From: a virus
Lineage: Duplodnaviria > Caudoviricetes
Direction: 5' to 3' (one strand)
Length of the DNA: 64,000 nucleotides
Virus record (IMG/VR): IMGVR_UViG_3300021400_001346
Location: 32,001 to 96,000 of that record
In this document: piece after piece, positions 608 to 63,777 of the stretch
Layout: each line of letters starts with the position of its first letter
How positions within the stretch are numbered: position 1 is the stretch's first letter
Notes under the pieces: generated by a model
Seen by the model: only the letters and a program-made list of their open reading frames with translations
What the model was told of the DNA's origin: nothing
Database searches by the model: none
Program-made: the position numbers and the translations under genes

Positions 608-641
608 AATAAAAAAGAAGGGACGATTGTCTCCCTTCTCT
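608..641 (-). terminator. Intrinsic terminator closing the ~700-nt non-coding transcript
   Basis: Minus strand GAGAAGGGA-GACAATCG-TCCCTTCT followed by a T-run. Confidence 0.8.
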
Positions 642-1323
642 ATTCGCAGTGGTTCATTATTTACTTTATGTTGCGTAGAACATCTGACGTAGCCGCAATG
701 TGGGTGGGAGATGGTATCTCCTCTTCGATGGTGCAAGGCCATCACCCCGTTCGATCGTGGGTCTAGTTTAGACCTGTTGCAGTATTTTCGGGCTTATCTG
801 ACTAGCCTTAGTAGCGAATGATGAGCGCTACGCCCACCAATAATAAGCATCGTTATTGGACTTAACCATTGACGGAGGTTGCCACCCGGAAGTTAGATAG
901 GAACTTCGCCTTGCTATTCGTAGGGTACTAGTATAATACTAACGGGCATAACTGACCGCATTGATTGTCTTCATTCGCAGTAGAAGGTAAGAACAATGAG
1001 ACTTATGTACTGCTTTGGTTGCGATGTTCATTTGACTTCGCCGTTAACGCGGACTGTCCACGCCAGTGAGCTAATTTTTGGTCTAGAAAATTAGATGAAA
1101 AGAATAGTTTGGTTTTTAGGCGTACGCTAGGATAGGTATCTATGGACTTACATACCATTGGGTAATGCCTCACCCTAACCCGAAATGTGATTTGGTTTTA
1201 GGCGTACACTAGGATAGGTTTTCTGGACTGACGCTTTAAAGCTGCCTACACCCAACCCGGTGATAGTAATGTCGCGAGTAAAGCCTTACAAACGCACGAT
1301 AGAGGTCTTTTTTAACTTTACTA
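610..1323 (-). ncRNA. Putative ~700-nt structured ncRNA, unclassified, with two tandem ~70-85-nt units at its 5' end
   Basis: Lies between a consensus promoter (1332-1360) and a terminator (608-641). No credible ORF or RBS, raised GC, at least 8 short hairpins. Confidence 0.6.
1107..1260 (-). repeat. Two imperfect tandem copies of a structured unit GGGTT(A)GGGTG(T)AGGC-[variable hairpin]-GTCCA..ACCTATCCTAGYGTACGCCTAAAA(A)CCAAA
   Basis: Direct alignment of 1191-1260 with 1108-1182. Confidence 0.85.
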
Positions 1324-3686: not shown

Positions 3687-3846
3687 CAATTTTTGCAGCA
3701 TAATCAACAAATTTCCGTCTAGCCCTGAGCAGCTGCTGAGCGCCGCGGAGTGGTAAGCCAAGTCCTGCTGCTGCCGGGAGTGAATGGCATGCCAATCGCT
3801 GCTTCTACCTAAGCCCACCCAACGTCGGGTCGGTCGGGGCAGACGG

Positions 3847-3937
3847 AAAAAGCCTAGTCAGTTTCGACTAGGCCAAACCCAAATAAAAAGGTCCCCTTGC
3901 AGGACCCGGTTCATAAAAAGATTGCGGCAACAATCTT
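3847..3937 (-). terminator. Three stacked intrinsic terminators
   Basis: Minus strand AAGATTG..CAATCTTTTT, GGTCC..GGACCTTTTT and GCCTAGTC..GACTAGGCTTTTT. Confidence 0.8.
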
Positions 3938-4586
3938 ACGTGGTATTGCCGTACCACGATTTACCGCTACATCTGCTGATGCTCACTTTCCGCGGCGAGA
4001 CGACCATTTCTATTTTACGCCACATGGTCGAGGAGTAGTTGGTCAATATTATTTTAGTTACTTGTTTGACTAAGCGCTTGCAACCATCGCGCTAAATCAG
4101 GGGTGCCCAATCCGCATCTGTTTTATTTTCTGTGGTACAGTCCCACGGACCATGCCGGTTTCTCTCCGGCGCCTCCGTGCCCAGGAGTCAGGGTGTCGTC
4201 AGCACATCGTTGGTCCTAGACGGTTGCGGCCGCCACAGACCATTGCCACCTGGATAGTTTTCAAGGCACTATCAATCGCCATCGGAGTTACCTTTGTCAG
4301 CGGCTCCTCAATATGACATATTCTTTCATTAGCGCTCTACCCTTACACGTCGGGTAATTAGCCGCGCTCCTCTACTACTTGCTGCGTGTCAGCTGCACCA
4401 CGTTTGGCCGAATCTCGGGACATACGTGTTACGTCTGTGCCTAACGGTAGATTACGCTCTACTGCACTGCACCGTGTTCTTCCCAGCCGAATTGGTCATG
4501 CCAATTTCTTACTCAACCTTAGTCCTGGTAGCCGAGATATACACGTCACGTTCGTGCGTCCGGCAAGTTATTGCTCTTGCTGCGCT

Positions 4587-4676
4587 AATTCTATACTTCA
4601 ATCGGAGTTGAACCGTCTATTCATCCTAGTCCCTTTGCTAGGCGCGCCTTTCCGCTCGGCCATTTATCATAGAATT
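4587..4676 (-). ncRNA. Degenerate tRNA-like element; anticodon not assignable
   Basis: D arm TGGCCGAGCGGAAAGGC, stem CCTAG/CTAGG with an 8-nt loop, T loop GGTTCAACTCC, outer stem AATTCTAT/ATAGAATT. Acceptor stem irregular. Confidence 0.6.
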
Positions 4677-4732
4677 CGGGAATTAATACTAATGTGGAGG
4701 TTGCCTCCACCCCGCATCGTCTGCGGATGCCT

Positions 4733-4819
4733 TAGTAGCCAATCGGAGTCGAACCGACATCTTCCTCTATCCGGTTTAGGGTGCTCTGTCCGCGGGTATT
4801 GCCCTTGAGCTATGGCACT
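4733..4819 (-). ncRNA. Degenerate tRNA-like element with an enlarged D loop
   Basis: AGTGCCA-TA-GCTC-[20-nt loop containing GGG-CAATA-CCC]-GAGC-A-bulged anticodon arm (loop AACCGGA)-GTCGG-TTCGACT-CCGAT-TGGCTACT. Confidence 0.65.
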
Positions 4820-5153
4820 GTATATGCTTTATAGTGCATTGGCTAGCACTTCGTTGACTTAGTGCAGTTTTGGTTGTTTAAAGGGGCGTTACTCCCTGCC
4901 AGCTAGTTTCTTGTCCACCCTCCGATCCTGTAAACCGAAGGGGCGGCGCACGACTGCCGCGTCGGAATGATTGGGGTCTATCCTACCCAGTGAGGTCTCG
5001 CTCACTTCGAGAGTCGCTTTGGCTAGATGCTATGCTCATCGTCCGGGTGTTTAGTCTCTTAAGCCCAACTACTTAACGGCTAGTTAACCGACAGCAGGCT
5101 CTTTCACGTTTTGACGTCTTAGTATTCACCCTGGTTACTGCTGCGTGGGTGTT

Positions 5154-5202
5154 TTGGGACCAGCCAAGGAGTTAAACCTCGGACTACCAGTCGTGCCGGC
5201 CA
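5154..5202 (-). ncRNA. Minimal tRNA-like domain (acceptor stem plus T arm, no anticodon arm)
   Basis: GGCCGGC..CTGGTAG..CCGAGG-TTTAACT-CCTTG-GCTGGTC-CCAA. Confidence 0.4.
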
Positions 5203-5420
5203 TAGTTATCATGGGGAAGAGTTGCAGGTAATCTGCCTGCCTCTTGCTACGGGGAATTTAAGCCCGTGCTCGGCGATTTCTCTGAGGTACGTTGTCCCCG
5301 CCTTGCGGCTGCCGGTCATTGGGTTCCAACCCATGTAATAGGGTGCTCTCTTCTTTGTTTTTTAACGAGGGGTATACGCCGAGCAGGGAGATGTTCCTCA
5401 ATTAATTTCTTACTATATTT

Positions 5421-5449
5421 ATTATACTACTTCGTGGCGGCTTAGTCAA
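5421..5449 (-). promoter_or_regulatory. sigma70 promoter for the 1.5-kb ncRNA
   Basis: TTGACT-17-TATAAT with no downstream ORF. Confidence 0.8.
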
Positions 5450-5679: not shown

Positions 5680-5928
5680 CTATTCAGTCTTGCTAGTTTC
5701 TAACGCAGTGTTGCCTAAAGCATATTCGGCAACTTCAACGTAAACGGTCTTTGCGACCTTGCGGGTACCGACCTTAACTAAGATACCTGCGGCGACCATA
5801 GCATTAGTAGTGCCGGTCTTAACTTCCTTGCCGACCTTTTCGCTGATTTCGGCTAAAGTCATGCCCTTTTCGGCTCCCTTTAATGCATTAACGACTGCAA
5901 CTCTAGTTTCATTTACTTTAACGTTCAT
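5680..5928 (-). CDS. Small winged-helix-like DNA-binding protein, 82 aa
   Basis: GMTLAEISEKVGKEVKTGTTNAMVAAGIL; paralogue of 8853..9128; strong RBS. Confidence 0.7.
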   Translation of the reverse strand: MNVKVNETRVAVVNALKGAEKGMTLAEISEKVGKEVKTGTTNAMVAAGILVKVGTRKVAKTVYVEVAEYALGNTALETSKTE

Positions 5929-28840: not shown

Positions 28841-29185
28841 ATGAATAATCAAGAATTACAACAAGCAATTCAAGAAATTTTAGATAAAGACAACTACTTT
28901 GATGCTATTGAAGCAGCAAATGAGTTTGAAAAAGAATATAAAAATAGTGAATTTTTTAAGAAAACTAAAAAGCCTTTAAAAGAAGTTTTACGCGAAGCTA
29001 AGGTTTTCTATACATTCAACTTTAAAAAGTTAGGTGAAAAGGTTCAAACTTTTATTAATGAACTTGACGTTAGTAAACTTAACTCTTTATTTGACCAAAT
29101 CGCAGCCACTTTTGGTCAAGAAAATCAAGAAATTAATTCGCAATTAGAAAGTTTAGCAGATTTTAAAAATATTATTGGTAAATAA
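28841..29185 (+). CDS. Putative tail assembly chaperone
   Basis: Small helical ORF directly before the tape measure gene. Confidence 0.45.
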   Translation: MNNQELQQAIQEILDKDNYFDAIEAANEFEKEYKNSEFFKKTKKPLKEVLREAKVFYTFNFKKLGEKVQTFINELDVSKLNSLFDQIAATFGQENQEINSQLESLADFKNIIGK

Positions 29186-29205
29186 TTTTTACCTGGAGGG
29201 AGGCT

Positions 29206-32200
29206 ATGGCTACAGACAATGAAATTAAAATTACATTAGAAGCTGCAAAATCAGTTAGAGACACCATCAAACAAGAAGGTGGTTTTTCTGGTAGAAAAGG
29301 CGAAGCCTCATTAGATAAAGTTAATAATGTTATTAAGACTATTGAAAAATTAGACCCTTCAAAAACTGACCTATTAAATAAAGAATTAAAAAACTTATCT
29401 TCTTTATTATTGAATGCATCTAAATATACTAAAGGAGTTAATTCTGACCTTGCGCAAGCAGTTACCAAATTACAAGAATTAAAAACTCAACAAAAGGATT
29501 TACAAAAAGAATTACGTGAGGCTTATAAAGCCCGTAAACAATCTATTGAACAATTAAAAGAAGATAAAGAAATTAGTAAATATACCTTTAGAAGTAAAAA
29601 AACAGGTGAAAATGTTTCTTCTTATAAAACAATTTCTGCTTTACATCAAGAAGGAAATCTACAAATTTATAATCAAGCGGGAACTCTTTTGAAAGGCGCT
29701 GCCGCAGACACTGTTTATCAAAATAGTTTTGGACAAGCAGACCTTGCCAGCCAACAAGTTGAAGCATTAAAAGAAAAACTTCAACAAAGCAAAACAAGTG
29801 CTGAACAAGTACAACTTCAAGTTGACCAATTAGAATTACAAGCAAAAGATGGAAAAGCTATTGCTGAAACACTTAAATTTGCTGGACAAATAGACAAAAT
29901 GACTGAGCCACCTGAACAAGATGTCGGTGGATTAGATACTGATGATATTAACTTACAAACTAATGCCATTGACAAACAAAATACTTCTCTTGGTAAAGCA
30001 TTTAAGCAATTTTCTATTTATGCAATTGCTTTAAGAACAGTTAAATCTGCTTTACGTGAAGCCACTCAAACTATTGCTCGTTTAGACCAATATCTTACTG
30101 AACAAGCAATGGTTACTGGTAAAACTCGTAAAGAAACTTATCAATTGCTTGAATCTTACCAAAGCATGGCAGGATCTCTTGGCACCACTACCAAAGAAGT
30201 TGCAGAAGTTACTACTCAATTCTTACGTCAAGGTAAAAGTGTTCAAGACTCTCTTAAATTAACAGAAGCCGCAATTTCTGCCGCAAAAGTTGCAGGTATT
30301 AGTGCGACTGAATCTGTTAACTATTTAACCACCGCTTTAAACGGTTTCCAATTAAGTGCGGATCAAGCTATCCGTGTTTCTGATAAATTCGCCGCAGTCG
30401 CTGCAACCGCCGCTACATCATACGACGAAATTGCTATTGCATTAAGTAAGGTTGCTGCACAAGCCAATCTTGCTGGTATGTCTATCGACTATACAACTGC
30501 CCTTTTAACAAAAGGTCTTGAAACAACTCGAGAAGCGCCAGAAACAATTGGTACTGCACTTAAAACTATTATCGCTCGTATGCGTGAGCTTTCCGATTAT
30601 GGTGAAACTCTCGGCGGCGATACTGATATCAACAACGTTGAATCACAATTGGCATATGTTGGTATTCAATTACGTGATAATAATGGAGAATTACGTTCAA
30701 CTGAAGACGTTTTAAATGATTTAGGACAAAAATGGGATACTTTAAATAGTAACCAACAAGCGGCTGTTGCAAAAGCACTTGCTGGTACACGTCAACAATC
30801 ACGTTTAATCGCTATGATGTCTGATTATGAACGTGTTCTTGAATTACAACAAATTTCTGAAAGATCTGCAGGTGCAACTGTTGCACAAATGGCAACCTAC
30901 CTTGAAGGTATGGAGGCCGCAACAAATCGTGTTCGTGTTGCATGAGAAACCATTATTACTACTGTTGCTAACAATGATTTAATTATAGGCTTAGTTAATA
31001 TTGGAGCTAATATATTAGACAGCATAAATGGTATCCTTGGAACTATGCCAGGTATGATTGCGGCCGTTACAATGTTATCTATACTTGGTTTAAATATTGT
31101 TGGTAACAAATTACGTGAATATCAAATTAGTAAAATACAAGCCAATTTAGACTTACAACGCGCTCAAGCTGACAATAAGGCTAATCAAGGACAAATTCGT
31201 GCAAATATTATTCAATTAGCACAAGAAAAGAAATTACAAAATGCTCAAGCAATAACAACAAAATTAACAGAAGCAGAAACTGCAGCTAAAATGGGAGATT
31301 TAGCCCAAGCTAAAAAATTAACTGCTGAAGCTAAACTTTTAAATACTGAAGGTGATGACCAAATTAATCAGCAATTCGAACTTTTAGAAGGTTTTCAATT
31401 ACAAGCTGATAATTTGGCTTTACAATCTTCTAATCTTTTAGGTCTTGCTGGAGCTTGAAGTGGTATTTTGACAATAGTTAATGCGATCAATACTGCATTA
31501 GGCATTGGCAATCTCCTTCAAATGGCAAGAGTTGCTTTAAAAGGTGCAGAAAATAAAGAAGATAAAAAAGCAATTGCTAACACGATGTTAAAAAATAAGG
31601 CAGAACTTAAAGGTTTACCTGGCCTTATTGCTAAAGCTTATGCTAAATCTGTTGCAAGTTTAGGACCAATTGCTGGCTCTATTGCATTTGCGTCTATTGC
31701 GGCTGCAATCACTGCCTTAGGAGTTATGGGTGGTATTGCAATCGCTGGAGGATTTAAACAAGCGGATCCATTAGACGATATTAATAAAACTTCTAATTCT
31801 ATTTACCAGCTTAATAAATCTACAACCGCTATTAAATCTACTATTTCTTCTTTTGAAAAGTTAGATGAACATATTATTAAAACTAAAAAAGATGCAGAAG
31901 ATATGGCTACCGCCCTCGAAGGTGCAGCAGATAAATTATCTTCTGATACTGAAGGTACTCTTCACAATATGTTAGGTCTTCGTGCCGGACAATCTGCACA
32001 AGATTATTATAAAACTTTAACTAGTGATAAACAACGTTTAGAATTTTTAAAACGTTATACAGAACTTTCTAATACATTAATTCGTCAACAACATGAACAA
32101 ATTATTAGAACTATTCGACAAAATAAACTTAATTTATCATTAGCTGAAAATGCTACTGCGGCAGCCGCAGTATATGCCCGTAACAATCTCGTACTCTATG

Positions 32201-33837
32201 ATTACATTGATGGTTTAGAGATGGAAGCCAATGGGCTTCAAGAAGTAACTCAAGCTATTCTTGAACAAATTGATGCAAATCAAGCCCTTAATCTTACACA
32301 ACAACAAATTCAAGACTTAGCACAAAAAATTCAAGACAGCGGCGCGGCTAGTATCTTCTCCGAAGAAGGCGGTTCTATTTTAGAACGTGCCCGTGCATTT
32401 AGAGACCTTAGTTCCGCTTTACAAAGTGACGCAGAGGCTCTTAAAGCCCTTAATAAGGCTTATTCCGAATGAGTTACTTTCGCCGGCATGGATGATGATA
32501 CTTTAGAGATACTTGATAAACTTAAATTAAATGCAGATAAACTTAATGATTTAAATGCAGCATATACTAAGTTACAAAAGAATGGAGTACCCATTTCTCA
32601 AGAAAGTTATCAGGCTCGTATTCCAATTTTACTTAATACCCTTGCGGCAACTAGCGGAGATGTCGCAGCTACAATTCGTACTGTCTTTGCATCTGAACTT
32701 GATCGCGCCGGCCAAGATTATGAAAAATGGTGGAATGCATTTGTTAGCGTATTAGGAGATTCCCTTACTGTTGGTATTCTCAACATGGGACAAAGTATAG
32801 ATACTCTTCAAAACAATATCAATGCCTTTTACGAAAAAGCATCTAAATGGACCACTCTTACTGAAACTGAGAAAAATGAGTTCTTAGCCGATTACGCTGA
32901 TCTCTTCTCTGGAGAGAATGGTGCAAAATTAAAAGCGGCTTTTGAAAGTGGCAATTACAATCTGATTCATGAAGCCTTACTTAATAATGAAGTCTTACAA
33001 GAACAAGTCGACAAACAACTTCAACAAGTTGAACAAGAACTTGCGGTTGAAAAAGCTCGTATTGGTAGCGCCCGTAATGAGGCTTATATCGCCGAACTTG
33101 AAGAATACAAAAAGCAACTTCAAAACCGCAACAAACTTTTCCAAGCCGATCTCAACTTACGCTTGGAACAACAAAATAAACAATTAGATGAATATAAATC
33201 TTATTTACAAGAACAAGAAAAAGCACTCACTGATTCGCTCAATAAGCGTCGTGATGCTTATGAAAAATACTTCGATGCTATTAATGAAAGCAAAGAAGAC
33301 GAAGAATATGAAGAACAAGCGCAACTATTGGCATCCAACCTTAGTAAACTTGGTTCTACCACTAACGCGGCCGCAGTTAACCAACGTGCCGAATTAGAAC
33401 AACAACTTCGTGACCTTGAAAAAGAAAGACTTGAAACTTTGCGTGAACGTGCGCAAGAAGCTATTTTAAATGAAATGGACGACACACTTAATGCTATTAG
33501 TGAAAAGTTTGATAAGTTATTAGAAAACAATCAAGCGCTTTTAATGGCATTAACAGGACAACTTAACAATCCAGTTGCCTTCCTTACCAGCATGTTGGCT
33601 AACCGTATTGCTGGAGGCGCAACTGAACTCGAAATGCAAGATTACTTCGGCACCTTAAGAAGTACTTATGGTTCTATCTTAAGTGATATTGATTGGGATA
33701 GTTTCTCATTTGGTACAGACGTCAGCAACAATTTAACATTAAATGTTGCCGGCCAAGAAGTAAACTTATCTGCCGCTGATTCAAGAGTCGTCTTTGCTGC
33801 AATTGAAACTGCATTAAAACAAATCGGATACAAATAG
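29206..33837 (+). CDS. Tape measure protein, 1543 aa; TGA at 30943, 31456 and 32470
   Basis: TP901-type core (DKFAAV.., ETTREAPETIGTALKTIIARM, LAGTRQQSRLIAMM), hydrophobic segment, coiled coils. Confidence 0.9.
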
Positions 33838-44781: not shown

Positions 44782-45907
44782 AAGTAAACTCCTTTTCTCA
44801 AATTGATCATGGTATTGTAATGTCGTTCTCTTTTTTATTTCCCCATTCGGTAAGTAAAAATTCTTTGTTTTGATAAGTTTGTCGTAATAAATCACGGAAT
44901 ACTGGATGCCATTCGTAAGGGCGACACCAGTATAATTGTTGTCTGTCTCGGCTGTATCCAACATAGCGGGCTGATAAATAGGCTAACCAGCTGCGCTTAT
45001 AAGATTTACTATTAGTCCATTCTGACACCATTTGAAACATAAAGAAATAAGGTGTCTCAGTATATTCTTTAGGTCCAATTACTTGCAACTGGATTTTATT
45101 TTCCTTGCAGAGAGTTATCCTACTACACAATAAATTAAATTCGTTTTGCGCTATTTTTGTATCTACCCAATGTTTGGAAGGAACCGGGCTGTATTTCATA
45201 GATAGCGGGCCAATTTTGGCGTTAGGAAAGGCTGTTTTTATTCGCACTAGTCCTTTTAACGCAACGTCAAATTCATTTCAACTGATAACATACCACTTTA
45301 AGTTTGAACCAGCACCAATTGATAATTCTAAGAAGATTTGAAACAATTCTTCATTCATCACCAGACGCATTAAATCAATTGGCTTGGTAAAATATAAGTT
45401 CTTGTGTCCCTTTAGTAAAGTGAATACTTCGATAAGGTCTTCTGTCGCGGCGTGTCATAAGGCAGGATCAGTTAACATTAAACGCTTGTGTTGAAATGCG
45501 TTCGTATAATCTTGAGTTAATGGTAAACGCTTGCCGTCATTATCAAAGAAACGCACTTGTTCTGCCCTTTCCAGTTGTGTATTTAATTCTGGATAAAGTA
45601 AATAATCAGGTCGACATCCTAACATTGCAGGTGTCATTTTCCATTTGACCTTTACTCTATATGCATCTCCCCACCATCTGACCTTTTTATTTAACAAGAA
45701 GTCTAGTGGTGGGTTAGGTGTTTCACTTTTCTCTTTAATAATATAATAGATATCATATGGTCGGCGAATATCGTCTTCCTTAGTAACGAAATTAATAGTA
45801 TCACCTAATTGCTTGTGATAACTACTAATTTTCATTACATCTGGATTAAAACAATTTACTTTTTCAGGCGCATAGTAATAATCTAAATCTCAAATACTAA
45901 CCTTCAT
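44771..45907 (-). CDS. 378-aa protein with five TGA; N-terminus resembles phage radical-SAM-type proteins but has no CxxxCxxC
   Basis: MKVSI[W]DLD..NPDVMKISSYHKQLGD..RPDYLLYP; TGA at 45890, 45455, 45278, 44807 and 44798; overlaps both neighbours. Confidence 0.65.
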
Positions 45908-48900
45908 TTTGTACGCTCCTCTTTTCTTCGAGTTCTACAAAATTACCCATATCGTCTAATACAATTCTTTCAATTGCTTGACGACCTGTATTCTTATATA
46001 CCTTTGGAATAAATGTTGCGCCTCTTTGAATACCTGTAACTAATAAGTGCACTCCTTTTTCAAAGAAACTGTCTTGTTCGATATCTTTTTCGCCGTTTTC
46101 ATTAATATCACCAATGACGGCAACAAATGTTGAATATAAATCTTTATATACCTTCAAACTGACAACACCATCGACCGTTTGTAAAGTTACTAAGCCTTTA
46201 ACTTTATCTCTATCAATGACTGTGCCCGCTAAAGTATATAATTTCATTTTTGGAATTTGTTTACCTTTAATTAAGAAGAAACCATCTGGCGCACCTTCAA
46301 CTACTTCTTCTAAGAAATTAACTTCAATGCCAAGTTGAGGAATAACTTTTGTTAATGGATGCCCATCAAAATAGAAGTTAACACTATCAAGTTCCCATTG
46401 TAACTCATCACCATTACAATATTTATTCCACTCTGTCATAAACAAACGATTATTTAATTTCTCCAATAATTCGTCGTGATGAGCTTTAATATAATTCTTA
46501 ATCGTTAACATTTTGCGGTCATAGAAGTTATCCCACAAATTACTATCCATTACACGACATGGAACTCCATCTAATACCAAGTCTTGTCCACGTACGCCGG
46601 CATCCACAATAATTTGTTTCCAAATATCTATTTTATCTACTGGCACTTCTAATGCATCGCCAATATACCATAACTTATTCTTATCTCTATGTTTTCTTAA
46701 TTCTTTTGTGAGTTTATAAACTTCACTTTCATAAGATAGTTCAGGTGGCAATAATCCTTGGTCAATTAACATATTTGCATTTTGCATAGTTAACTTTTGC
46801 TTTGCATCACATACTTGCCAAATAAAATCTGTTAAAATCTCTTTTCTATCCTTCTTTTCAATGCGGTCAAATGCGCCGCATTTAATTAAATTAATAACTT
46901 TATCTTTTGTAACAATACGACTTGTTGTTCTATTTAAGAAATCTTTTAGTGAAGAATATGGTCTATTAATCATAATTTCTTCAATAACTGGCGCCGTTAC
47001 TCTACTAATACCTTTTAAACCATACAAAATAGAATTATCTTTTACATCTGGTGTAAATCCTAATCGAGATTCATTTATATCTGGTAAACGTACTTTACAG
47101 CCGCTACCTCTAAAGTTATCGAGTGCTTGTGCAATCTTTGCATAATCCATTTTATTTTGCACTCTCTTACCTTCAACTTCATCGATTTCAACGATGTTTT
47201 CATCGACCAAGTTATAAAAATCTTGCGCGTTAATTGCACTACTATCAACTGATAAACATGCTGTGTTCCAATAAATAATTGGCCATTTGTGCGCCAAGTT
47301 CATTTCTTGAACCGCAATAATTGAATAACCTGTTGTATGTAAACGGCTAAAAGAATAACCTAATGACATACCGATTTGAACTTTCCAAACATAATCTAAT
47401 AATACTTTTCTAGTTCCCGCGGCTAATCCTTTTTCATAAAATAATTGTCTAACATTTTCAATTTCTCTAAATGCCTTCTTTGCAATTGTTTTTCTTAATC
47501 GGTTGGCTTCTTGCATTGTAAAGTTACTAATATGTGGATCCATGGAAAGTTCCATAACAACTTCTTGAGATTCGGCAAGTCCGCAAGAACCTTCCAAATA
47601 CTTTTTTAATACTTTTACTTCATCTGCATTTAAACCATATTCGTTCATCTCATCATACCAAAGTTGAGGTGAAGTTTTAAATTTAACATATTTATCTAAT
47701 GGAAGTTCCGCACCTTTTTCGCCCATTAATCTCATGATTGAGTTTGCAACCGCTAATTCAGTTAAACTGTGCGGACGAATTTGCTTAATTGCCTGGCCAC
47801 CGACTAATGTATCGAACTGGAATAAACTTCTAATTTCACCATTTGCGGCCTTATCCCACATTTCTTTATCATTATAATCAATTACTTGCGGCGACAAATA
47901 TTTATTATAAGTACTTCTTAAATCGCCTTGCCATTCAAGAGTACCATCTTCTAACATATAATTCATGGTTTGGTGAATACGGTCAAGCGCTGAAACTGTT
48001 AATAAATCGTATTTAACTAAACCACAACGCTCCAATTTGTGTAAATCAAAACAGGTGACTAATTGTTCCTTATTAGTCTTCATGAAACCTGCATAATCAG
48101 TTAATGGACTATTCAAACAAACAACACCTGAAGCATGAACACCTAATCTGGTGACCAATCCTTCAATGCCTTGCGCAACTTCCCATAACATTGGGTTTTC
48201 GTCCATTACTTGTTTAAATGCGGCACGACCTTCTCTATCCTCACCGTTACCATAATAACAATCATGCAAGCTCCAGTCAAAACCTCTTTCATTAGGTATC
48301 ATTGAAGTTACATATGTAATTAAGTCATCATCTATATTTAAACCACGACCTGCGGTCTTTAATGCACTCTTAGTTCCTTCTGTACCAAAAGTACAAACAT
48401 TAACAACATCTCCACCTAAGCTTTGGAAATATTCTCTAATGTTATTAAAAACGGCGGCTCTCTTATCTGACTCTGAGTCAACATCAATATCAGGTAAGTC
48501 TGGTCTAGATGGGTGCATAAATCTCCAAACATATGGAAGATTTAATTCAATTGGGTTCATTTGTGTGATACCTAATAAATAATTAATCAACATCGCACCT
48601 GCCGAACCACGGCTTGGACCAACAATTGAACCGGCTTCCCACATTAAGTCAATCATTTTTGCCATTGAAATAAAATAATCAGACATGTGTTGACCAATCT
48701 TTTCGCCGACTTCTTTAATTGTCCATAATTCTTCTTCTAATCTATTATAATATGTTTCACTATTCCAAGTTTCATCATATTTATTAATATACCCATGTGC
48801 AATTAATCGTGCCAAATAATTATCGGCTTGATTATCTGTATGTAAATAATAATAAAAGTTTGGATAAGTTTGTTCGTCTACATCATCAAAAAACTCTAAA

Positions 48901-49955
48901 TCTTCTTTATATTCATCAAAATGTTCATATGCAACACGTGCTATAACTTGTTTTTGGTCTAATGTATAATAAGAGCACATTTGTTGAATACGATTTGTAT
49001 TATTAATCATTTCTTGGAATTGTTCTTCGGTTATATAACTTTTCATAAAGCCATAAACTTCTTCCGCGGCCATCATATATGCATAACCATAAAATTCGTC
49101 GACATCTCTAGTTCCACTGGAACGGCTATTTAAAAATGCCTTATGAACTTCTCTTAAAGCTGGCTTTAAATAATGCGCGTCTGTTGTAAAAATAAAAGGA
49201 TACTTGCCCCAATAATTATTAATTAACCATTTATTATAATCTATTTGGTCAAACTTTTCACTTGGTTGTAACTCTAAATAATAATTCCCCTTACCAAATA
49301 ATTCTTCCATCATTTGTAAGTGATTATCAATTTGTTGTTTAATCGCACGTTTTTGTTCTTCGTCTAAGCATGCCACCATCTCGTTATATTTACGCGCGAC
49401 ATATCCAGCCAAACATGCTGTTGAACATACTATATGTCCACCTTTAACAATTTCAAATAAATCAGATGGATAGGTTGGTGTTCTCATCATACGTCCATAA
49501 AAGAACCCACGACTCCATGCGCGACTACTTAATTGACGTATTTGTTTAAAACCTTCGGCATCTTTTGCTACTAAAAGATAATGATAAAAATAGGTCTTTT
49601 CACCATTCTTATAGTTTTCTCTTTGCGTTTCTTCAGTGACACCTTCGGCTGTTAGATAAATTTCATTACCCAACATAATTTTAAAGTTTAATTCAGCAGC
49701 CATTTCTTCTACTGATGGTACTTCTTTGTCTGGATTTAATTTTGTCCATTCATCAGTTATTTTTCTTTTATAACAATCTAATTCTTCAATGGCACCTGAA
49801 ATACAATCATGGTCAGTAAAAGCGAGACCAGAAAACCCTAAGTCCCACGCATAATTAATCATATCCATTGGACGATTAATACTATCTATAACATGGACAT
49901 TTGAATATTCTGTATGATTATGTAATGATGTATAAAATTGATGTTCTGATCTCAT
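45897..49955 (-). CDS. dnaE: DNA polymerase III alpha subunit
   Basis: PHP domain (LHNHTEYS, FTDH, TTDAHY), GPSRGSAG, PDIDVD, GVHASG, KYDLL, GYSFSRLH, PDINES. Confidence 0.97.
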   Translation of the reverse strand: MRSEHQFYTSLHNHTEYSNVHVIDSINRPMDMINYAWDLGFSGLAFTDHDCISGAIEELDCYKRKITDEWTKLNPDKEVPSVEEMAAELNFKIMLGNEIYLTAEGVTEETQRENYKNGEKTYFYHYLLVAKDAEGFKQIRQLSSRAWSRGFFYGRMMRTPTYPSDLFEIVKGGHIVCSTACLAGYVARKYNEMVACLDEEQKRAIKQQIDNHLQMMEELFGKGNYYLELQPSEKFDQIDYNKWLINNYWGKYPFIFTTDAHYLKPALREVHKAFLNSRSSGTRDVDEFYGYAYMMAAEEVYGFMKSYITEEQFQEMINNTNRIQQMCSYYTLDQKQVIARVAYEHFDEYKEDLEFFDDVDEQTYPNFYYYLHTDNQADNYLARLIAHGYINKYDETWNSETYYNRLEEELWTIKEVGEKIGQHMSDYFISMAKMIDLMWEAGSIVGPSRGSAGAMLINYLLGITQMNPIELNLPYVWRFMHPSRPDLPDIDVDSESDKRAAVFNNIREYFQSLGGDVVNVCTFGTEGTKSALKTAGRGLNIDDDLITYVTSMIPNERGFDWSLHDCYYGNGEDREGRAAFKQVMDENPMLWEVAQGIEGLVTRLGVHASGVVCLNSPLTDYAGFMKTNKEQLVTCFDLHKLERCGLVKYDLLTVSALDRIHQTMNYMLEDGTLEWQGDLRSTYNKYLSPQVIDYNDKEMWDKAANGEIRSLFQFDTLVGGQAIKQIRPHSLTELAVANSIMRLMGEKGAELPLDKYVKFKTSPQLWYDEMNEYGLNADEVKVLKKYLEGSCGLAESQEVVMELSMDPHISNFTMQEANRLRKTIAKKAFREIENVRQLFYEKGLAAGTRKVLLDYVWKVQIGMSLGYSFSRLHTTGYSIIAVQEMNLAHKWPIIYWNTACLSVDSSAINAQDFYNLVDENIVEIDEVEGKRVQNKMDYAKIAQALDNFRGSGCKVRLPDINESRLGFTPDVKDNSILYGLKGISRVTAPVIEEIMINRPYSSLKDFLNRTTSRIVTKDKVINLIKCGAFDRIEKKDRKEILTDFIWQVCDAKQKLTMQNANMLIDQGLLPPELSYESEVYKLTKELRKHRDKNKLWYIGDALEVPVDKIDIWKQIIVDAGVRGQDLVLDGVPCRVMDSNLWDNFYDRKMLTIKNYIKAHHDELLEKLNNRLFMTEWNKYCNGDELQWELDSVNFYFDGHPLTKVIPQLGIEVNFLEEVVEGAPDGFFLIKGKQIPKMKLYTLAGTVIDRDKVKGLVTLQTVDGVVSLKVYKDLYSTFVAVIGDINENGEKDIEQDSFFEKGVHLLVTGIQRGATFIPKVYKNTGRQAIERIVLDDMGNFVELEEKRSVQNEG

Positions 49956-49984
49956 ATTTGTTTTCCTTTACTTATTTTATTATA

Positions 49985-50200
49985 TTATATCTTTTTGGCT
50001 TCGTCAATACTTTCTTGGCCTATATCCCAAAACTCATTATAAAGAGTGTCTGCATTATCGTAGTAATCAGTAATTAATTCAATGGCTTGTTCTTTTGTGC
50101 AGTCAATGTAAATATCATCCATAATAGACATAAAGAACTCTGGATAATCTGACCTAGACATAACTGCGCCCCATTTCTTTTTAAACTCTTGTAAATTCAT
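49985..50200 (-). CDS. Hypothetical protein, 71 aa
   Basis: ORF coupled to recJ. Confidence 0.6.
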   Translation of the reverse strand: MNLQEFKKKWGAVMSRSDYPEFFMSIMDDIYIDCTKEQAIELITDYYDNADTLYNEFWDIGQESIDEAKKI

Positions 50201-51993
50201 TATATTAAATCTCCTAAATTATTAGAACGAACAATTTGTGTAGACAACAGTGGTTCTACAACATAATCGTCCATAACGATTTGTATGCTTGAACGCCCCA
50301 TAAACTCATTTAAGCTTGGCGCACCAACAATCGTGATGTGTCCAGATGTATAAGTTTGTAATAATTTAACAAGCGCGGCATCTTTGAAAGTTACAAAATC
50401 TATACCATCGTATTTAATTTTTACTGAGCTCTTGTCTTTACCCATGATTTGAACATTTGAAGGCGAATAGTTAAAATCAAATGCAAATAATGGACGAGGT
50501 AAACCATTACCCCATAATTTATCTTGTTGCGCGAACTCATATAACATACCTTGGTCAATAAAGTCACTGCTATGGAACCAATAATCAACCTCAAACACTG
50601 TATCATTAAATGATTCGGCGTTTAACATCTTGTCTGAATAAGCGCGCAATGCATCAACATTTTCTTTAGTGATAAATAAGCCATGCGCATTGGCGTGTCC
50701 AGCCGCGTATAAAACCAAGCCACTTTGTTTTAGAAAGTCAAGTAAACTTGGAATGCCGTAGAAATTACCATTACGTCCACTACCTCCATAAACCATCTGT
50801 CCTTCGTATTCAGTGGTACGTAAGACTAAACATGGTTTGCCGAACTCTTTAACAAGTTCCATGGCGATAAGCCCCGTAACGTTTTGATTTACTTTTTTAC
50901 TATCTTCTTCATTAATTGTAGCAATGACAATATTATGTTGGTCCCACCCGTTTTTGCGGATTTCGTCGCATAACCATTCAAAGGACTTTTTCTTTGCACT
51001 GTCTTGTCTACTCTTGGCATTTACTGCAAGACGAACGGCATGTTGATATAACGTTTCATAGTTCTTTACGCCGCGCCATTCGTGAAGGAAGTTCTCAGTG
51101 CAATTTTCTTCCCATAAGGCACGGAAGACTAAGTTCTTATCTTCAGCAGTGCCGCTACGAATAACACCATTAATAACAGGTGCAATATAGAAGGCAACAT
51201 CAATCTTGCTAAGGTGAGCCGCGTCTTTGATGCCTCTTTCTTGTTTTTCTGCCAATTCCTTTAAAAATTTATTTTTAATATTATTAAGACCATTATAAGC
51301 AATCCAGTTATTGCCGAGAGTAGTCATATTCATGGCATCTGCAATAATTCCTACCGCGGTTAAATCTAAGTAATCGTCTGCGATAGGCGAATCGGCGAAA
51401 TGTTTTTCGTCCATGGCTCGTAAGAACATATAGACGATACCAACACCGCTTAAGTTCTTATTGAAGAACTCAGGACTAAATTGGTTATTAACCAAGATGG
51501 CGCCGGTCTCTTCATAATTTTCATTAACTTCGTGATGGTCTAAAATAATAACAGTCTTATTTGCGGCGATAAGTTCTTTTTGTTGTTCATAATCATTTGA
51601 ACCGGCATCAGGAATAAATATTAACTTATCATCTGTTTTGATGTAGTCGCAATTAATACCATGTTCCTTGCCATTATGTAATTCATAATTAATTCTTACT
51701 GTTGGCCATCTGCGTTTAATGTATGAGATTAAAATCGCAGATGATGTAAAACCATCTGTATCAGAGTCCGGTTGAACATATACATTCGCGCCGCCATTAA
51801 GCAACTGATAGGCGGTTTCAACGGCATAGTCTAAGTTCAATAACTTGTGAGGATTATCAACATCTGAGAAACGTGGAGCCGCCAAAAAACTATTAACATC
51901 TTGGATTTTAATACCCAAGCTAGTTAAATAACTGGTTAAATAACTTTTATCGCCAGGATTGATGTGGTTTACTTTTAATTCAATACGTTTCAT
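50200..51993 (-). CDS. recJ: RecJ-like ssDNA exonuclease (DHH/DHHA1)
   Basis: DSDTDGFTS, HG, ILDHH, GIIAD, APVIN, GSGR, AGHANAHG. Confidence 0.93.
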   Translation of the reverse strand: MKRIELKVNHINPGDKSYLTSYLTSLGIKIQDVNSFLAAPRFSDVDNPHKLLNLDYAVETAYQLLNGGANVYVQPDSDTDGFTSSAILISYIKRRWPTVRINYELHNGKEHGINCDYIKTDDKLIFIPDAGSNDYEQQKELIAANKTVIILDHHEVNENYEETGAILVNNQFSPEFFNKNLSGVGIVYMFLRAMDEKHFADSPIADDYLDLTAVGIIADAMNMTTLGNNWIAYNGLNNIKNKFLKELAEKQERGIKDAAHLSKIDVAFYIAPVINGVIRSGTAEDKNLVFRALWEENCTENFLHEWRGVKNYETLYQHAVRLAVNAKSRQDSAKKKSFEWLCDEIRKNGWDQHNIVIATINEEDSKKVNQNVTGLIAMELVKEFGKPCLVLRTTEYEGQMVYGGSGRNGNFYGIPSLLDFLKQSGLVLYAAGHANAHGLFITKENVDALRAYSDKMLNAESFNDTVFEVDYWFHSSDFIDQGMLYEFAQQDKLWGNGLPRPLFAFDFNYSPSNVQIMGKDKSSVKIKYDGIDFVTFKDAALVKLLQTYTSGHITIVGAPSLNEFMGRSSIQIVMDDYVVEPLLSTQIVRSNNLGDLI

Positions 51994-53069
51994 TATTTTA
52001 TTATCTCCCTTTCAGCTAATAGTTTTTCAAAAGTCTCTTTGCCGCCATCAATTGGACTACTCTTGTATGGTAATACAAAGTCGTAATCTATTAAGATGCT
52101 TACATTAAAGTAAGGCGATAATAGACGCGCTTTGGCAATATACTTTTCTCGTACTTCTTGTAGTTGCTGATAATCTTCATAATCGGTATCATATGCTAAA
52201 ATAACATTTGCGACACCCAATTTTAATAAATATTGTATGTGTTCTCGTGTAATATTTTGACCTAAAGTTGCAAGTGCAATATTTTGGTCATCTCCATAAA
52301 TGGTTCCATAGTGCAATACTGACTTTTCACCCTCAAAAATAATACACATATGTTTTCTTCTTATGTTCTTTTGGTTTTCCCATATGCCATAAAAGGTGCG
52401 GCCCGTTGGGTGATTGAATAATTGATTGTCCAAATAGGCTGGACGATACTTACCTTTTAAAATATCTTCTGGTTTGAAAAAACGTTCTCGAATCCCTATT
52501 AAATTACCTTTCATGTCAAAGTTAGGGATTAGAATGGCATCGTGGGCTTTATTATATTTAATATTAAACTTCTGCAAAGTTTCGATGCTGATGCCTTCTT
52601 CAATCCAAGGCATTAACCCTGCAAAATCAAAACTAAATTTTCTTAAGATACTTTTGTCGTATACCTTAAAATTTAAGTTGTCGATATCTGGTATATACAT
52701 ATTGTTTAAAGTTTGCATATACTTAATATCTTCAGACGTATTATATTTTCTATCTTCTACTACAATGTGACTTGCATCTAAATCACATAAACTAACCGCT
52801 TGTTGTAATGTAATCTCTTGGTCACGCAATTTATACATCTTTTGCAATAATGTAAAGATGTCAAATGTATCCGCGCATTCAGTAAAGCAGTGGAAGAGTT
52901 TACTATTTTTATAATAATATAACTTTGGACTGCCGCCTTCCAAGTTGTGGCAACAAGTAGGGAATATTATTACTTCGCTAGTTTCATCATATGGTTCTAC
53001 ATTAAATTGACCTAAAATATTTTTAATCATTTCATCTGTCAATTGTTCTCTTAACTCTTTAAAATTCAT
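51993..53069 (-). CDS. DNA primase (Zn finger plus TOPRIM)
   Basis: CCH..HCFTEC, IFEGEKS, LAYDTD. Confidence 0.88.
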   Translation of the reverse strand: MNFKELREQLTDEMIKNILGQFNVEPYDETSEVIIFPTCCHNLEGGSPKLYYYKNSKLFHCFTECADTFDIFTLLQKMYKLRDQEITLQQAVSLCDLDASHIVVEDRKYNTSEDIKYMQTLNNMYIPDIDNLNFKVYDKSILRKFSFDFAGLMPWIEEGISIETLQKFNIKYNKAHDAILIPNFDMKGNLIGIRERFFKPEDILKGKYRPAYLDNQLFNHPTGRTFYGIWENQKNIRRKHMCIIFEGEKSVLHYGTIYGDDQNIALATLGQNITREHIQYLLKLGVANVILAYDTDYEDYQQLQEVREKYIAKARLLSPYFNVSILIDYDFVLPYKSSPIDGGKETFEKLLAEREIIK

Positions 53070-53070
53070 A

Positions 53071-54657
53071 CTATATGACTCCTTTTGAAACTAATTCTAA
53101 ATAATCATACAGTTTCTTATCATACTTTAAGAGACCATAATCAGCAATTGCTTTATAACTTGAGTCTGTAACAAACAAGTCTTCGCAATGGCAGGTGGCA
53201 AAATCAAAGTATCTAAATATTTTAACACAGTTCATTTCGCCGCGTCGATTTTTATATACGTCTATAACAATATTTGGCTCTTTTGTAAAACGACCCGCCT
53301 TTTGATTTTTTAATTCAGTCCAAATCGTTTCAATTTGTTTCTTTTCTTCGTCACCTAATCTAACACCAATTAAACCAATATCAATTTTATCGGCAATGGC
53401 TTTAGACCCTCTTAAACAGTTTTGGTCACGCAATCCTATTTCGCGTTTACTCCAGTTTTCATTCAACTGTGTGGCGCTTTGAATAAATACATTATATGTC
53501 ATCGCAATTTCTTTTAAAGTATTACTTAACATCATTAATGCTACATATTCTTTAACATCTGCACTTGCAAACTCTGTGATTAAACTTGGAGAAGTAAAAA
53601 TATAATCATAAAAGATATATTCTACATTATCTTGCACTATGTATTTTGTTAAACGCGCCTTAATCATGGCGATACTTGGGTCAGGAATACACTCAATAAT
53701 AAAATTACTTCCATACTTATCTATAATCTTGAGTGCCCTTTGAACTCTATCTAATTCGTCTGGTGAATAATTACCTAACAAAATAGTTTTTTCATTAACA
53801 CCGCTAACATATGCTAAAATTAAAGTTTGAATTTCATCTGCTTGCATTTCAGTTGCAACAAATAAAACTTTTTGATAATCTGCGCCGTCTTCTCCACGCA
53901 CCACGACATGGCCATCTTTATCAATATATGGCATACTAATCGCGCATGCGTTGCCGACCATATAACGAGTTTTACCTGAACCTGATGGTGCACTATAAAT
54001 ATATAATTTGCCAAGTCTGGCTCCTCTCGCGGCCCAATTTATTATATCGCCGTCAAGTGGCAATCCGACTTCTGGATGCGCCTGTAATTCGGCAACCAAG
54101 TCTCTTAAACCCGCAGATGCTGGTTGAGATGTTCCTTGGTCCTTTCCAATATGTCTATTTTCAATATCAACTACTTCACTACGCAATGTCTCCAGAATCG
54201 AATTAATCGACATACGATTTAATTTTTCATCTTCGATATCACGATTTAAAGTATTCGCCGTATTGTAAAAATTAGAAGTGTCAATACCAAGACTTTCTAA
54301 ATCTCTCAGTACTGAAAACTTTTTGACTCTTGCATAATAATAGTCAAATTGCTTTTCGTCACTTCCTTCGGCAGTTTGATAACATTGAGTTACATACTCG
54401 TAGCCTTTATTTTCTTTATAATATGTATATTGTCCGTCGTATTGATGTATATATAAATCTACATCTTGCGGCGTAATTTTTTCGACTCCTTGGTTTGCCA
54501 TATTAAAAATGGCATAAAATATTATTTGTTCCAAAGGTTTATAAAAGTCCGTCTTTACAAATGCATATCTCTCATCTTGTAATAAAAGCGGCTTTCTCAT
54601 TAAACAACTAAGTACATACAATGAAGCACTGGAGTCGAAGAGGTCTTTAGTTATCAT
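53071..54657 (-). CDS. dnaB: DnaB-like replicative helicase
   Basis: SAPSGSGKT, ATEM, FYDYI, ATQLN, LRGSKAIADKID, KNRRG. Confidence 0.92.
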   Translation of the reverse strand: MITKDLFDSSASLYVLSCLMRKPLLLQDERYAFVKTDFYKPLEQIIFYAIFNMANQGVEKITPQDVDLYIHQYDGQYTYYKENKGYEYVTQCYQTAEGSDEKQFDYYYARVKKFSVLRDLESLGIDTSNFYNTANTLNRDIEDEKLNRMSINSILETLRSEVVDIENRHIGKDQGTSQPASAGLRDLVAELQAHPEVGLPLDGDIINWAARGARLGKLYIYSAPSGSGKTRYMVGNACAISMPYIDKDGHVVVRGEDGADYQKVLFVATEMQADEIQTLILAYVSGVNEKTILLGNYSPDELDRVQRALKIIDKYGSNFIIECIPDPSIAMIKARLTKYIVQDNVEYIFYDYIFTSPSLITEFASADVKEYVALMMLSNTLKEIAMTYNVFIQSATQLNENWSKREIGLRDQNCLRGSKAIADKIDIGLIGVRLGDEEKKQIETIWTELKNQKAGRFTKEPNIVIDVYKNRRGEMNCVKIFRYFDFATCHCEDLFVTDSSYKAIADYGLLKYDKKLYDYLELVSKGVI

Positions 54658-55066
54658 ACTTATCTACTCCTTCGACATGAATTTCATTCATATCTAATTG
54701 TTTAGGTTGTCTCTTTTTATGTTCTAATGATTTTATGTTGAATATTATATTATTGTCTTGATACTCTACTATCTTTTTTGCCTCGATAGCTTGATTTCGT
54801 TGGTCAAGTTCCAACTTTTTAAAATACTTATCAACTTCTTCTCTTATAGACGCAAAGATTTTAACGCCGTAAAGTGGTGATATCTCTTTCTGCGCTACTT
54901 CCACATACCAAACGGCGCAACGTGCAACTTCTTTTAACGTAAAATTATCATCTAATACTAATGAATTAATTTGACGTTTAATCATATTAGGGAGCGGGCC
55001 GCTTAGACCCATATACTCCCTAATTAAATCTTCTACATAAGTTCTAGTTATTAGAGTTTCTTCCAT
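54647..55066 (-). CDS. Hypothetical replication-module protein
   Basis: ORF overlapping both neighbours. Confidence 0.6.
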   Translation of the reverse strand: MEETLITRTYVEDLIREYMGLSGPLPNMIKRQINSLVLDDNFTLKEVARCAVWYVEVAQKEISPLYGVKIFASIREEVDKYFKKLELDQRNQAIEAKKIVEYQDNNIIFNIKSLEHKKRQPKQLDMNEIHVEGVDKYDN

Positions 55067-55817
55067 TAAGAGCTGCCTCAATTTCGCCTAAGAAATAAGA
55101 AACCTTTTGCATATTGGCGCAGTCTTCTGTGAAGGTTGTTGTTGATAATTTTTTACCTGGGAATAATTTTGTAACATATGCAACAATTGCGTTACTTGCA
55201 TTTTTATCTTTTTGTCCGCTGGCAATAATTTGAATAACATGTTCTTTAAGTTTTTCAAAATCTGCTTCTGAAAGTGTTTGACAATTATAATTATCTGCGG
55301 CTACTGCAATACCATCGAAATCAATTGCCATTTTGACTTTTTCATCTTCTGGTAAATCTTCACCTGCATAAATATATAATCCTAAGCCATGTCTTGCACA
55401 TACTTTAACAAATGCTCTTTGTAAAGCCTTATTAACTGCGGTTGAAGTAACAACTTCGGCACGGATAGCATTTTGTTTGTTATCCATAACTGGAAGATAT
55501 TCAATATATTGACGATTATCAATAGTTAAACCAACTTTAACATAACAAGTTTTTCCATCTGTAAAATATGGAACTTCGTTAGTTGTTTCTTCAACGGTTA
55601 CTGATTCATAACCATCTGCTATACTTTTAGTAGTAGTAGTTGAAGTTACTTCTCTGGTAAAAATTGTATAAACGGCATCGGGATATCTTTTCATGATTTC
55701 TCCCCATGCGTATGCCCAACTTAAATATGTTAAACCTATTTTTTCTTTTGTCTTATCTTTTAAACTAATTGAATTTAATATATCAAAACTGGTTAATTTC
55801 TTTTCTTCGCCTGTCAT
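55044..55817 (-). CDS. Single-strand annealing protein (DUF1071/Sak-like)
   Basis: LTYLSWAYAW, YLPVMD, QRAFVK..ARHGLGLYIYAGEDLP. Confidence 0.88.
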   Translation of the reverse strand: MTGEEKKLTSFDILNSISLKDKTKEKIGLTYLSWAYAWGEIMKRYPDAVYTIFTREVTSTTTTKSIADGYESVTVEETTNEVPYFTDGKTCYVKVGLTIDNRQYIEYLPVMDNKQNAIRAEVVTSTAVNKALQRAFVKVCARHGLGLYIYAGEDLPEDEKVKMAIDFDGIAVAADNYNCQTLSEADFEKLKEHVIQIIASGQKDKNASNAIVAYVTKLFPGKKLSTTTFTEDCANMQKVSYFLGEIEAALNGRNSNN

Positions 55818-55876
55818 TTTTATTCTCCTTTATTAAATAAGTCTAACGAATAAGCGGCGGTGTTATTTTCCACCGC

Positions 55877-56761: not shown

Positions 56762-56844
56762 AATTTCTCCTTTTTAATTTTCTCTTTTAATTATTCTAGC
56801 AAAGTTTTTTCTTTTGCGCAAGCTACATTTCAATTGCGCAGAAG

Positions 56845-57114
56845 TTAATTTTGATATGAACGACCAAAGTCGGTCAATAAATATGTTTGATATTCTTTAG
56901 GTTTTGTTTCGCCCTTAATATTAGTAAAGTTTCTAGTGATAGGGTCTCCCTTTTGGACTAGTTTTCTGTTTACTAAAGAGTTAAGGACAGGATAAATACC
57001 TTTAATTCCTGTTGCATCAGCGATGTCTTTTCCAACTAATAATTCGTCATGCCCTTGCATATATTCAAGAACAACCTTACCATTATCAGTTAAAATAATC
57101 TTATCATCATTCAT
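56845..57114 (-). CDS. Small winged-helix-like protein, 89 aa
   Basis: LTDNGKVVLEYM..GKDIADATGIKGIYPVLNSLVNRKLV..TYLLTDFG. Confidence 0.7.
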   Translation of the reverse strand: MNDDKIILTDNGKVVLEYMQGHDELLVGKDIADATGIKGIYPVLNSLVNRKLVQKGDPITRNFTNIKGETKPKEYQTYLLTDFGRSYQN

Positions 57115-59460: not shown

Positions 59461-59462
59461 GG

Positions 59463-63773: not shown

Positions 63774-63777
63774 ACTA

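Follow-up and report, generated by a model that had tools for sequence, protein, structure and literature searches.

What is made from some 1.5 kilobases (kb) of phage DNA that run from a promoter to a cluster of terminators and hold no conserved open reading frame (ORF)? The locus that raises this question lies on the minus strand of a 64,000-nucleotide (nt) stretch, referred to below as the window, which comprises bases 32001-96000 of the 115.7-kb IMG/VR virus record IMGVR_UViG_3300021400_001346 (Duplodnaviria; Caudoviricetes), a genome listed as 100% complete; positions are those of the window unless genome coordinates are stated. A preliminary description had proposed that the locus is expressed as a heavily structured non-coding transcript that contains three aberrant transfer RNA (tRNA)-like domains. 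Comparison with homologues indicates that it very probably represents a previously uncatalogued family of modular structured RNAs with mimics of the upper half of tRNA: some ten domains are strung together in the RNA, and each domain tested is closed by its own helix.

A chain of movable modules

Read from its 5' end on the minus strand, the RNA consists of a leader, module A, tRNA-like element 3, a pseudoknot, module M3, a cassette, modules M5/M6, M7, C and M9, and the terminators. About ten homologues were found in related phage and metagenome contigs of a single phage clade (L090, L003, L099, L102, L103, L104, L108, L106 and L100), and two further phage contigs, L118 and L120, have single modules in common with the family, which is thus a narrow one. 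The phages of this clade also encode ~30 tRNAs and a ROOL RNA, and in-frame TGA is found in their late genes. A matrix of module presence and order shows that relatives gain, lose, duplicate or move whole domains; in effect, the natural variants already dissect the RNA, with entire domains present, absent or relocated between close relatives.

The leader hairpin P1 (5366-5400) combines a 5-base-pair (bp) stem with a nearly invariant loop of ~25 nt and is followed by an A-rich, single-stranded linker, TAAAAAACAAAGAAGA (5337-5365), that is invariant in the homologue alignments. Module A (5209-5336) is a self-closed, multi-helix domain with GNRA-type loops (folding z-score of -2.15); it precedes tRNA-like 3 in the window but is located after the pseudoknot block in L103 and L003. 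The H-type pseudoknot (5091-5151) is formed by stem S1, which pairs 5151-5147 with 5131-5127, and stem S2, which pairs 5144-5138 with 5097-5091, with a hairpin between, and always stands directly 3' of tRNA-like 3. Module M3 (4856-5065), again self-closed and ~210 nt long, starts with GGCTTA and is closed by TAAGTC.

Homologue comparison defines the next segment (4584-4853) as an optional cassette that consists of a linker, tRNA-like A, hairpins and tRNA-like B. The cassette is present in the window, L102 and L103, and L104 has its start, at the truncated end of the contig. L090, L099 and L108 lack the cassette, and in L090 and L099, M3 is joined straight to M5. Two spacer hairpins separate tRNA-like A from B (4694-4726), the second of which shows five compensatory pairs. 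Modules M5 and M6 (4395-4586) are paralogues of each other, diverged tandem copies of one element, and both match the same stretch of L090. The remaining modules are M7 (4314-4394), common to L103 and L108; module C (4151-4313), a conserved structured domain; and the 3' terminal domain M9 (3938-4150), common to L108, L102, L090 and L099. The extent of the modularity is illustrated by L108, from which the leader loop, the cassette, M5/M6 and C are missing, and by L102, which has neither M6 nor M7. The combination of tRNA-like 3 and the pseudoknot is found on its own in L120 (650-2850; from G001, a 146-kb phage), within an ORF-poor stretch of more than 2 kb, and this copy displays compensatory changes in both pseudoknot stems. 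The ORF-poor stretch of L120 may itself be another large modular RNA.

Evidence for structure and against coding

Structural support was assessed as the number of base pairs changed on both sides (compensatory changes), counted on alignments of individual modules because the rearrangement of modules renders global MAFFT alignments misleading. Compensatory changes were detected in every module tested: 3 of the 5 predicted pairs of the leader stem (7 homologues), 11 of 40 in module A, including 6 in its closing stem, 7 of 20 in the T arm of tRNA-like 3 together with the pseudoknot, 12 of 48 in M3 (5 homologues) and 12 of 41 in module C (4 homologues). The cassette, for which only three complete sequences could be aligned, contributes at least 14 such pairs. 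In the alignment of the T arm and pseudoknot, 92% of the cells are paired, compared to 31-44% when the pairing partners are slid, and none of 500 shuffles reaches the observed value. The collection of homologues, proposed as a check in the preliminary description, and the count of compensatory changes came out in favor of a structured RNA.

The ORF of 41 amino acids that overlaps module A is not a real gene: its start codon is lost in homologues, where it reads ATG, ATA, GTG or GCA, and these changes are compensated across the closing stem of the module. The lengths of module A among the homologues differ by +2, +3, +8 and +41 nt. It could be argued that the locus is a decayed tRNA array, some other non-functional DNA, or a set of hidden small protein genes, given the weak similarity to tRNA, the folding energies close to those of shuffled sequences and the presence of short ORFs. 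This explanation seems hardly credible in view of the dozens of compensatory pairs across six modules and of the blocks of 16-20 identical nt that are shared by relatives whose sigma factors are only 49-55% identical. Furthermore, the homologue indels include sizes that are not divisible by three (+2, +8 and +41 nt), and the mimics are no closer to the tRNAs of the phage itself than shuffled controls are, as judged by global alignment to its 28 tRNAs.

tRNA-like elements that retain the upper half

The three tRNA-like elements lie where they had been reported, at 4676-4587 (B), 4819-4734 (A) and 5201-5157 (3), on the minus strand, and homologue comparison and covariation bear out the view that they retain T arms and the GG of the D loop and have non-working anticodon arms. 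The simplest is tRNA-like 3, which lacks an anticodon arm and is made up of a 7-bp acceptor stem (5201-5195 paired with 5164-5158), a short D hairpin that includes GG, and a T arm whose stem has 5 bp and whose loop has 7 nt. Its acceptor pair 6-67 is GC, UG, AU, CG or UA among the homologues. The element occurs in a 45-49-nt form and in an 82-91-nt form with extra arms, one of which ends in a 6-nt loop; the longer form is found in L090, L099, L102, L103, L106, L100 and L003. The base just before the first G is U in all 10 aligned homologues.

The two elements of the cassette are more elaborate. The minimum free energy (MFE) fold of tRNA-like A is a cloverleaf, with a 7-bp acceptor stem interrupted by one bulge, a D arm whose enlarged loop contains a mini-hairpin, and a T arm; the D stem covaries, and the bulged base of the acceptor stem varies. 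The hairpin in the place of the anticodon arm is of a different length and sequence in each of the three copies of tRNA-like A: its loop has A at position 33, and shorter hairpins take the place of this loop in L102 and L103. The outer stem of tRNA-like B has 8 bp and is combined with a purine-rich internal loop, a D arm of class-II-like form, a hairpin whose loop, AAAGGRA, is conserved, and a T arm; compensatory pairs were found in the outer stem (3), the AAAGGRA hairpin (4) and the T stem (1), and the hairpin loop is 8 or 11 nt long among the homologues.

Measured against a canonical tRNA, tRNA-like 3 and A have the usual acceptor stem of 7 bp stacked on a T stem of 5 bp, together with 7 nt in the T loop and the D-loop GG, whereas B departs from this pattern. 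An anticodon arm with a stem of 5 bp and a conserved loop of 7 nt (U33, purine 37) is absent in all the mimics, and none carries CCA, in contrast to the two phage tRNAs with 3' ends read, both of which end in CCA. The matches to tRNA models are weak: the Rfam tRNA family RF00005 (threshold of 29 bits) yields 21.8 bits at 4818-4734 and leaves the other two elements unmatched, and the L103 copy of tRNA-like A, at 31.9 bits, gives the sole Rfam match among the homologues. ARAGORN, run at default stringency as the tRNA-finding check that had been suggested, calls no tRNA or tmRNA in the window. Because the acceptor stem of tRNA-like 3 covaries while the anticodon and variable arms are optional, the comparison of sequences points to the elbow formed by the acceptor, T and D parts as the part under selection, with the decoding half not kept.

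Distribution of the family

The homologues were identified by three routes. Loci collected with the sigma-factor gene next to the RNA as a guide yielded L002 and L003, and among the 80 viral loci gathered in this manner the RNA is present only in L010 and L011; the sigma factor has many relatives at ~60% identity. Words common to the window and L003 then led to L090, in a 130-kb phage (genome G003), and, as the third route, the same approach yielded nine JGI metagenome contigs.

Searches by other means were negative. A BLAST search of the region against 50,697 phage records gave no match; a 19-mer from module A matched only L003-type contigs among the viral contigs; a pattern derived from the T arm of tRNA-like B gave no match in viral contigs; and a model of tRNA-like 3 with its pseudoknot, run on 96 sources with a total of 0.96 Mb, detected no additional copy. 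A pattern scan of genome contigs produced six matches, approximately the chance expectation, and one of these, L109 from a metagenome-assembled genome of Clostridia, was rejected as it shows no other similarity.

The transcription unit and its neighborhood

The preliminary description had presented the locus as a unit that extends from a promoter to three terminators. The promoter and two strong terminators stand, on the minus strand, but the third terminator is weak. The sigma-70-type promoter (5421-5449, minus strand) has the -35 box TTGACT (5449-5444), a 17-nt spacer and the -10 box TATAAT (5426-5421), with 11 of 12 consensus matches, and the start of transcription is predicted near 5414; promoters of the same form align ahead of the RNA in L090 and L003. 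On the minus strand, ~1.5 kb without a conserved ORF separate this promoter from the terminator cluster (3846-3937), in which each hairpin is followed by a T run. The two strong hairpins, both called by the program, have stems of 7 bp (3907-3889) and 10 bp (3874-3851), whereas the weak one (3937-3918; stem 3937-3931 with 3924-3918) contains only two G-C pairs and was read by eye. Over the 3.5 kb scanned, 10 promoter-like sites were counted compared to 4.4 +/- 2.2 in shuffled sequences, and 7 terminator-like sites compared to 4.1 +/- 2.2, so that these signals are plausible but, taken alone, do not amount to proof.

The high G+C content (GC) noted originally is borne out, with 0.50-0.53 over 3750-5400 against 0.31-0.45 in the flanks. 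The longest minus-strand ORFs at the locus encode 41-47 amino acids, and the plus-strand ORFs over the locus have no match in PHROG. Gene order is retained among the homologues: an exonuclease-like ORF, a gene for an 82-amino-acid winged-helix protein, the RNA and, as the next gene downstream, that of a sigma-70-family factor. In every homologue with sufficient flank, the winged-helix gene (5680-5928, minus strand, in the window) immediately precedes the RNA promoter, and its product is a candidate regulator or binding partner of the RNA, judging by this position.

Between the terminators and the promoters of the sigma gene lies a minus-strand stretch with a GC of 62% (3700-3850) that is conserved only in the closest relative, L108; in this stretch, AGACGG is found 23 nt upstream of a TTGACG box at 3686. 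Elsewhere in the window, a second ORF-free, hairpin-rich block of ~0.7 kb (610-1323, minus strand) has no Rfam match and is unlike the 1.5-kb RNA family.

Punctuation, scaffold or decoy

How might such a chain be used? We put at about even the chance that the locus produces an early ~1.5-kb modular non-coding RNA whose upper-half mimics serve as punctuation cut by host enzymes. A single early transcript would be made from the host-type sigma-70 promoter; host enzymes that read only the acceptor/T/D upper half would bind the mimics; RNase P would act 5' of them, and RNase Z together with the CCA-adding enzyme 3' of them; and the chain would be cut, in the manner of a tRNA operon, into stable pieces, roughly the leader with module A, the pseudoknot with M3, and a 3' part of ~670 nt. 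Under this scenario, the mimics would be non-decoding punctuation. The upper half is all of the tRNA that RNase P, RNase Z and the CCA-adding enzyme recognise, U(-1) is the leader base preferred by RNase P, and in other systems tRNA-shaped elements direct the cleavage of long non-coding transcripts, as in the case of MALAT1/mascRNA and organellar punctuation. Conservation of the upper half through covariation, variability or deletion of the anticodon arm, and the invariant U(-1)/G(+1) at one mimic make punctuation by RNase P and RNase Z a better fit than the ideas, also voiced in the preliminary description, that the mimics are decoys or take part in a code switch. The more specific proposition that host enzymes cleave at the mimics and thereby release stable pieces is possible, and we advance it with less confidence.

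Several observations weigh against a structured RNA that is cut at its mimics. The folding z-scores are weak, from -2.15 to +0.88, and the energies are mostly no better than those of shuffled sequences; the case for RNA structure beyond chance is therefore made by the homologues and the compensatory changes and not by folding energy. The covariation counts, in turn, overstate the number of independent events, owing to the close kinship of several homologues and to the three-sequence alignment of the cassette. At the two cassette mimics, the -1 base is C and G rather than U. In tRNA-like B, a 5-nt spacer and the irregular internal loop between the T stem and the outer stem preclude a canonical 12-bp acceptor-T stack. 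Finally, the invariable position of the pseudoknot directly after tRNA-like 3 suits a single functional unit as well as it suits a cut site.

The last point touches on the principal rival explanation, under which the transcript is an intact, large RNA-only scaffold, possibly multimeric, like the phage RNAs GOLLD and ROOL, and the mimics are structural or are displayed in a linker instead of being cut. The GNRA-type loops, the pseudoknot and the T loops are typical tertiary-contact motifs, tRNA-like 3 is never apart from its pseudoknot, and the GOLLD linker sometimes holds real tRNAs, all of which would be in line with a scaffold. Here, however, the original claim has to be amended: the compensatory pairs within modules uphold a heavily structured non-coding transcript, but global long-range pairing gives way to a chain of self-closed modules. 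Neither the MFE fold of the 1.5-kb RNA nor searches for duplexes between the leader and the body revealed pairing that is conserved across homologues, and no helix that joins distant parts of the RNA is kept among them; the one candidate, between the leader and M3, is lost in L090 and L118. Given, in addition, that every domain is self-closed and open to relocation or loss, in contrast to ROOL and GOLLD, whose models have fixed cores and do not match the locus, we view an intact scaffold as rather unlikely.

Retention of the upper half with loss of the decoding parts is also what one would see in a decoy, that is, an abundant early RNA that soaks up host factors binding the acceptor/T half and so protects the 30 tRNAs of the phage; the proposed targets include acceptor-end-modifying toxins, defences of the tRNA nucleotidyltransferase type and tRNA-modifying enzymes. 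The strong early promoter, the heavy investment of the phage in tRNAs and the optional status of the cassette, which is common for accessory counter-defence elements, are compatible with this possibility. The loci examined, however, contain no linked defence or counter-defence gene, and mimics without an anticodon loop cannot distract anticodon nucleases, the best-known tRNA-targeting defences. A decoy role accordingly appears quite improbable.

Returning to punctuation, its most far-reaching version would be a phage operon of RNA domains, in which cleavage of the mimics by host RNase P and RNase Z would free independently folding functional RNAs that phages exchange as recombining cassettes. 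This extension is speculative, and we consider it doubtful, though not implausible. Should it hold, it would constitute a bacterial-virus counterpart of mitochondrial tRNA punctuation and MALAT1/mascRNA processing and could provide a general logic for the many modular RNA arrays that lie near phage tRNA islands and are in no catalogue. Cutting by RNase P and RNase Z at the mimics would bear, more generally, on the frequent presence of big RNAs in phage tRNA islands.

The UGA recoding question

The late structural genes of the phage (13794-43544, plus strand) contain in-frame TGA, and the tape-measure ORF (29182-33834, plus strand) gives one continuous match to PHROG 4211 across three TGAs; the homologous tape-measure genes of three related phages contain 5-8 in-frame TGAs, whereas the large minus-strand ORFs at 45897-63797 are mostly free of them. 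The mimics might then be suspected of acting in the reading of UGA in late genes, either as unusual suppressor tRNAs or as release-factor traps. Apart from the readthrough itself, the motive for this idea is that no tRNA with a UCA anticodon is detected at normal stringency in the genome, which is listed as complete and has 28-33 tRNA genes (17.9-27.9 kb in genome coordinates). A low-stringency call of a 'tRNA-SeC(tca)' (genome 28362-28452) was rejected on account of its numerous mismatches.

Direct decoding by the mimics, and with it the code-switch role suggested for them, is nevertheless disfavoured, and we regard any part of theirs in UGA reading as very unlikely. A UCA triplet in a 7-nt loop is absent from all the mimics: their loops measure 6, 7, 8 or 11 nt and vary from homologue to homologue, and the minimal form of tRNA-like 3 dispenses with the anticodon arm altogether. 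L090 lacks the cassette, yet the tape-measure gene of its genome, G003, contains 8 in-frame TGAs; the recoded genome G005 shows no match to the RNA (in a BLAST search of a genome that is 74% complete). There is, moreover, an alternative reader: the tRNA-Trp(CCA) of the phage, encoded outside the window (genome 27309-27383, minus strand), has a U11-A24 pair in its D stem. The U11-A24 change is what allows the Hirsh suppressor to read UGA. By this analogy, tRNA-Trp(CCA) is a candidate UGA reader of the phage.

Comparison with known RNA families

A scan against Rfam 15 found no family at the gathering threshold at the locus, so that the identification with a known family by which the preliminary description had proposed to judge novelty did not materialize. 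Relaxed thresholds brought up tRNA and mascRNA as the sole relevant matches, each coinciding with a tRNA-like element. Novelty is judged here relative to Rfam; the 8,495 unnamed viral candidates listed in PMC10690425 may include short pieces of the family.

Among families with tRNA-like parts, the best Rfam match to tRNA-like 3 is mascRNA (RF01684), with 22.5 bits at 5210-5158 (E = 0.16), well short of the threshold of 42.5 bits. MALAT1/mascRNA, mitochondrial tRNA punctuation and plant t-elements all involve anticodon-poor tRNA shapes within long non-coding transcripts that are cut by RNase P and RNase Z. These examples come from eukaryotes or organelles, and the likeness is one of shape and proposed mechanism rather than homology, with cleavage in the present case being a prediction. 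Canonical tRNAs and phage tRNA operons share with the locus the acceptor stem, the D arm with GG, the T arm with a U54/A58-type loop, a single promoter and common terminators; a well-known example is the tRNA cluster of phage T4, a tRNA operon with co-transcribed stable RNAs. The mimics differ from canonical tRNAs in that they lack the conserved 7-nt anticodon loop and CCA and have enlarged or irregular loops. Features of the acceptor, T and D parts are also retained in other non-decoding tRNA mimics, namely the bacterial Y-RNA-like YrlA and the tRNA-like domain of tmRNA. Neither is matched in Rfam at E values up to 10, ARAGORN reports no tmRNA, and no Ro-binding stem or tag frame was seen.

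In agreement with the preliminary description, in which the RNA could not be matched to GOLLD or ROOL by eye, neither covariance model matches the locus. For ROOL (RF03087, threshold of 99.1 bits), there is no match at the locus and no sequence similarity either. A genuine ROOL, the only one in the genome, is encoded by the same phage outside the window (genome 23878-24455, minus strand; 215 bits), and two relatives that carry the 1.5-kb RNA, G003 and G004, also carry ROOL (69793-70386 and 93404-93998, respectively), with scores in the range of 196-222 bits and a location inside tRNA islands. Thus, the RNA coexists with ROOL and is not a diverged copy of it. The resemblance is one of setting: ROOL, too, is a large phage RNA near tRNAs, and in the related phages L004 and L005 it is located just upstream of the same sigma-factor gene.

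GOLLD (RF02032, threshold of 150 bits) has its best match in the genome elsewhere, at 10.3 bits, and none in the window or the homologues. GOLLD is a very large structured RNA of phages and prophages that is found near tRNA islands; in the present phage, a tRNA island is ~8 kb from the locus. In GOLLD, a variable and a conserved part are accompanied by a linker, in which tRNAs are sometimes embedded; this calls to mind the optional linker cassette with its two tRNA look-alikes, although these are not real tRNAs. Compared to GOLLD, the RNA is about twice as long, its embedded elements are non-decoding, and its domains move or are lost between close relatives. GOLLD and ROOL rank with the most remarkable RNAs of unknown function, and the new family adds a still larger member to this class; its tRNA-mimic and pseudoknot modules, which are compact and of natural origin, could also be of use in RNA engineering. 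By setting and size class, GOLLD and ROOL are the nearest kinds to the RNA, and GOLLD is so also by virtue of its tRNA-bearing linker.

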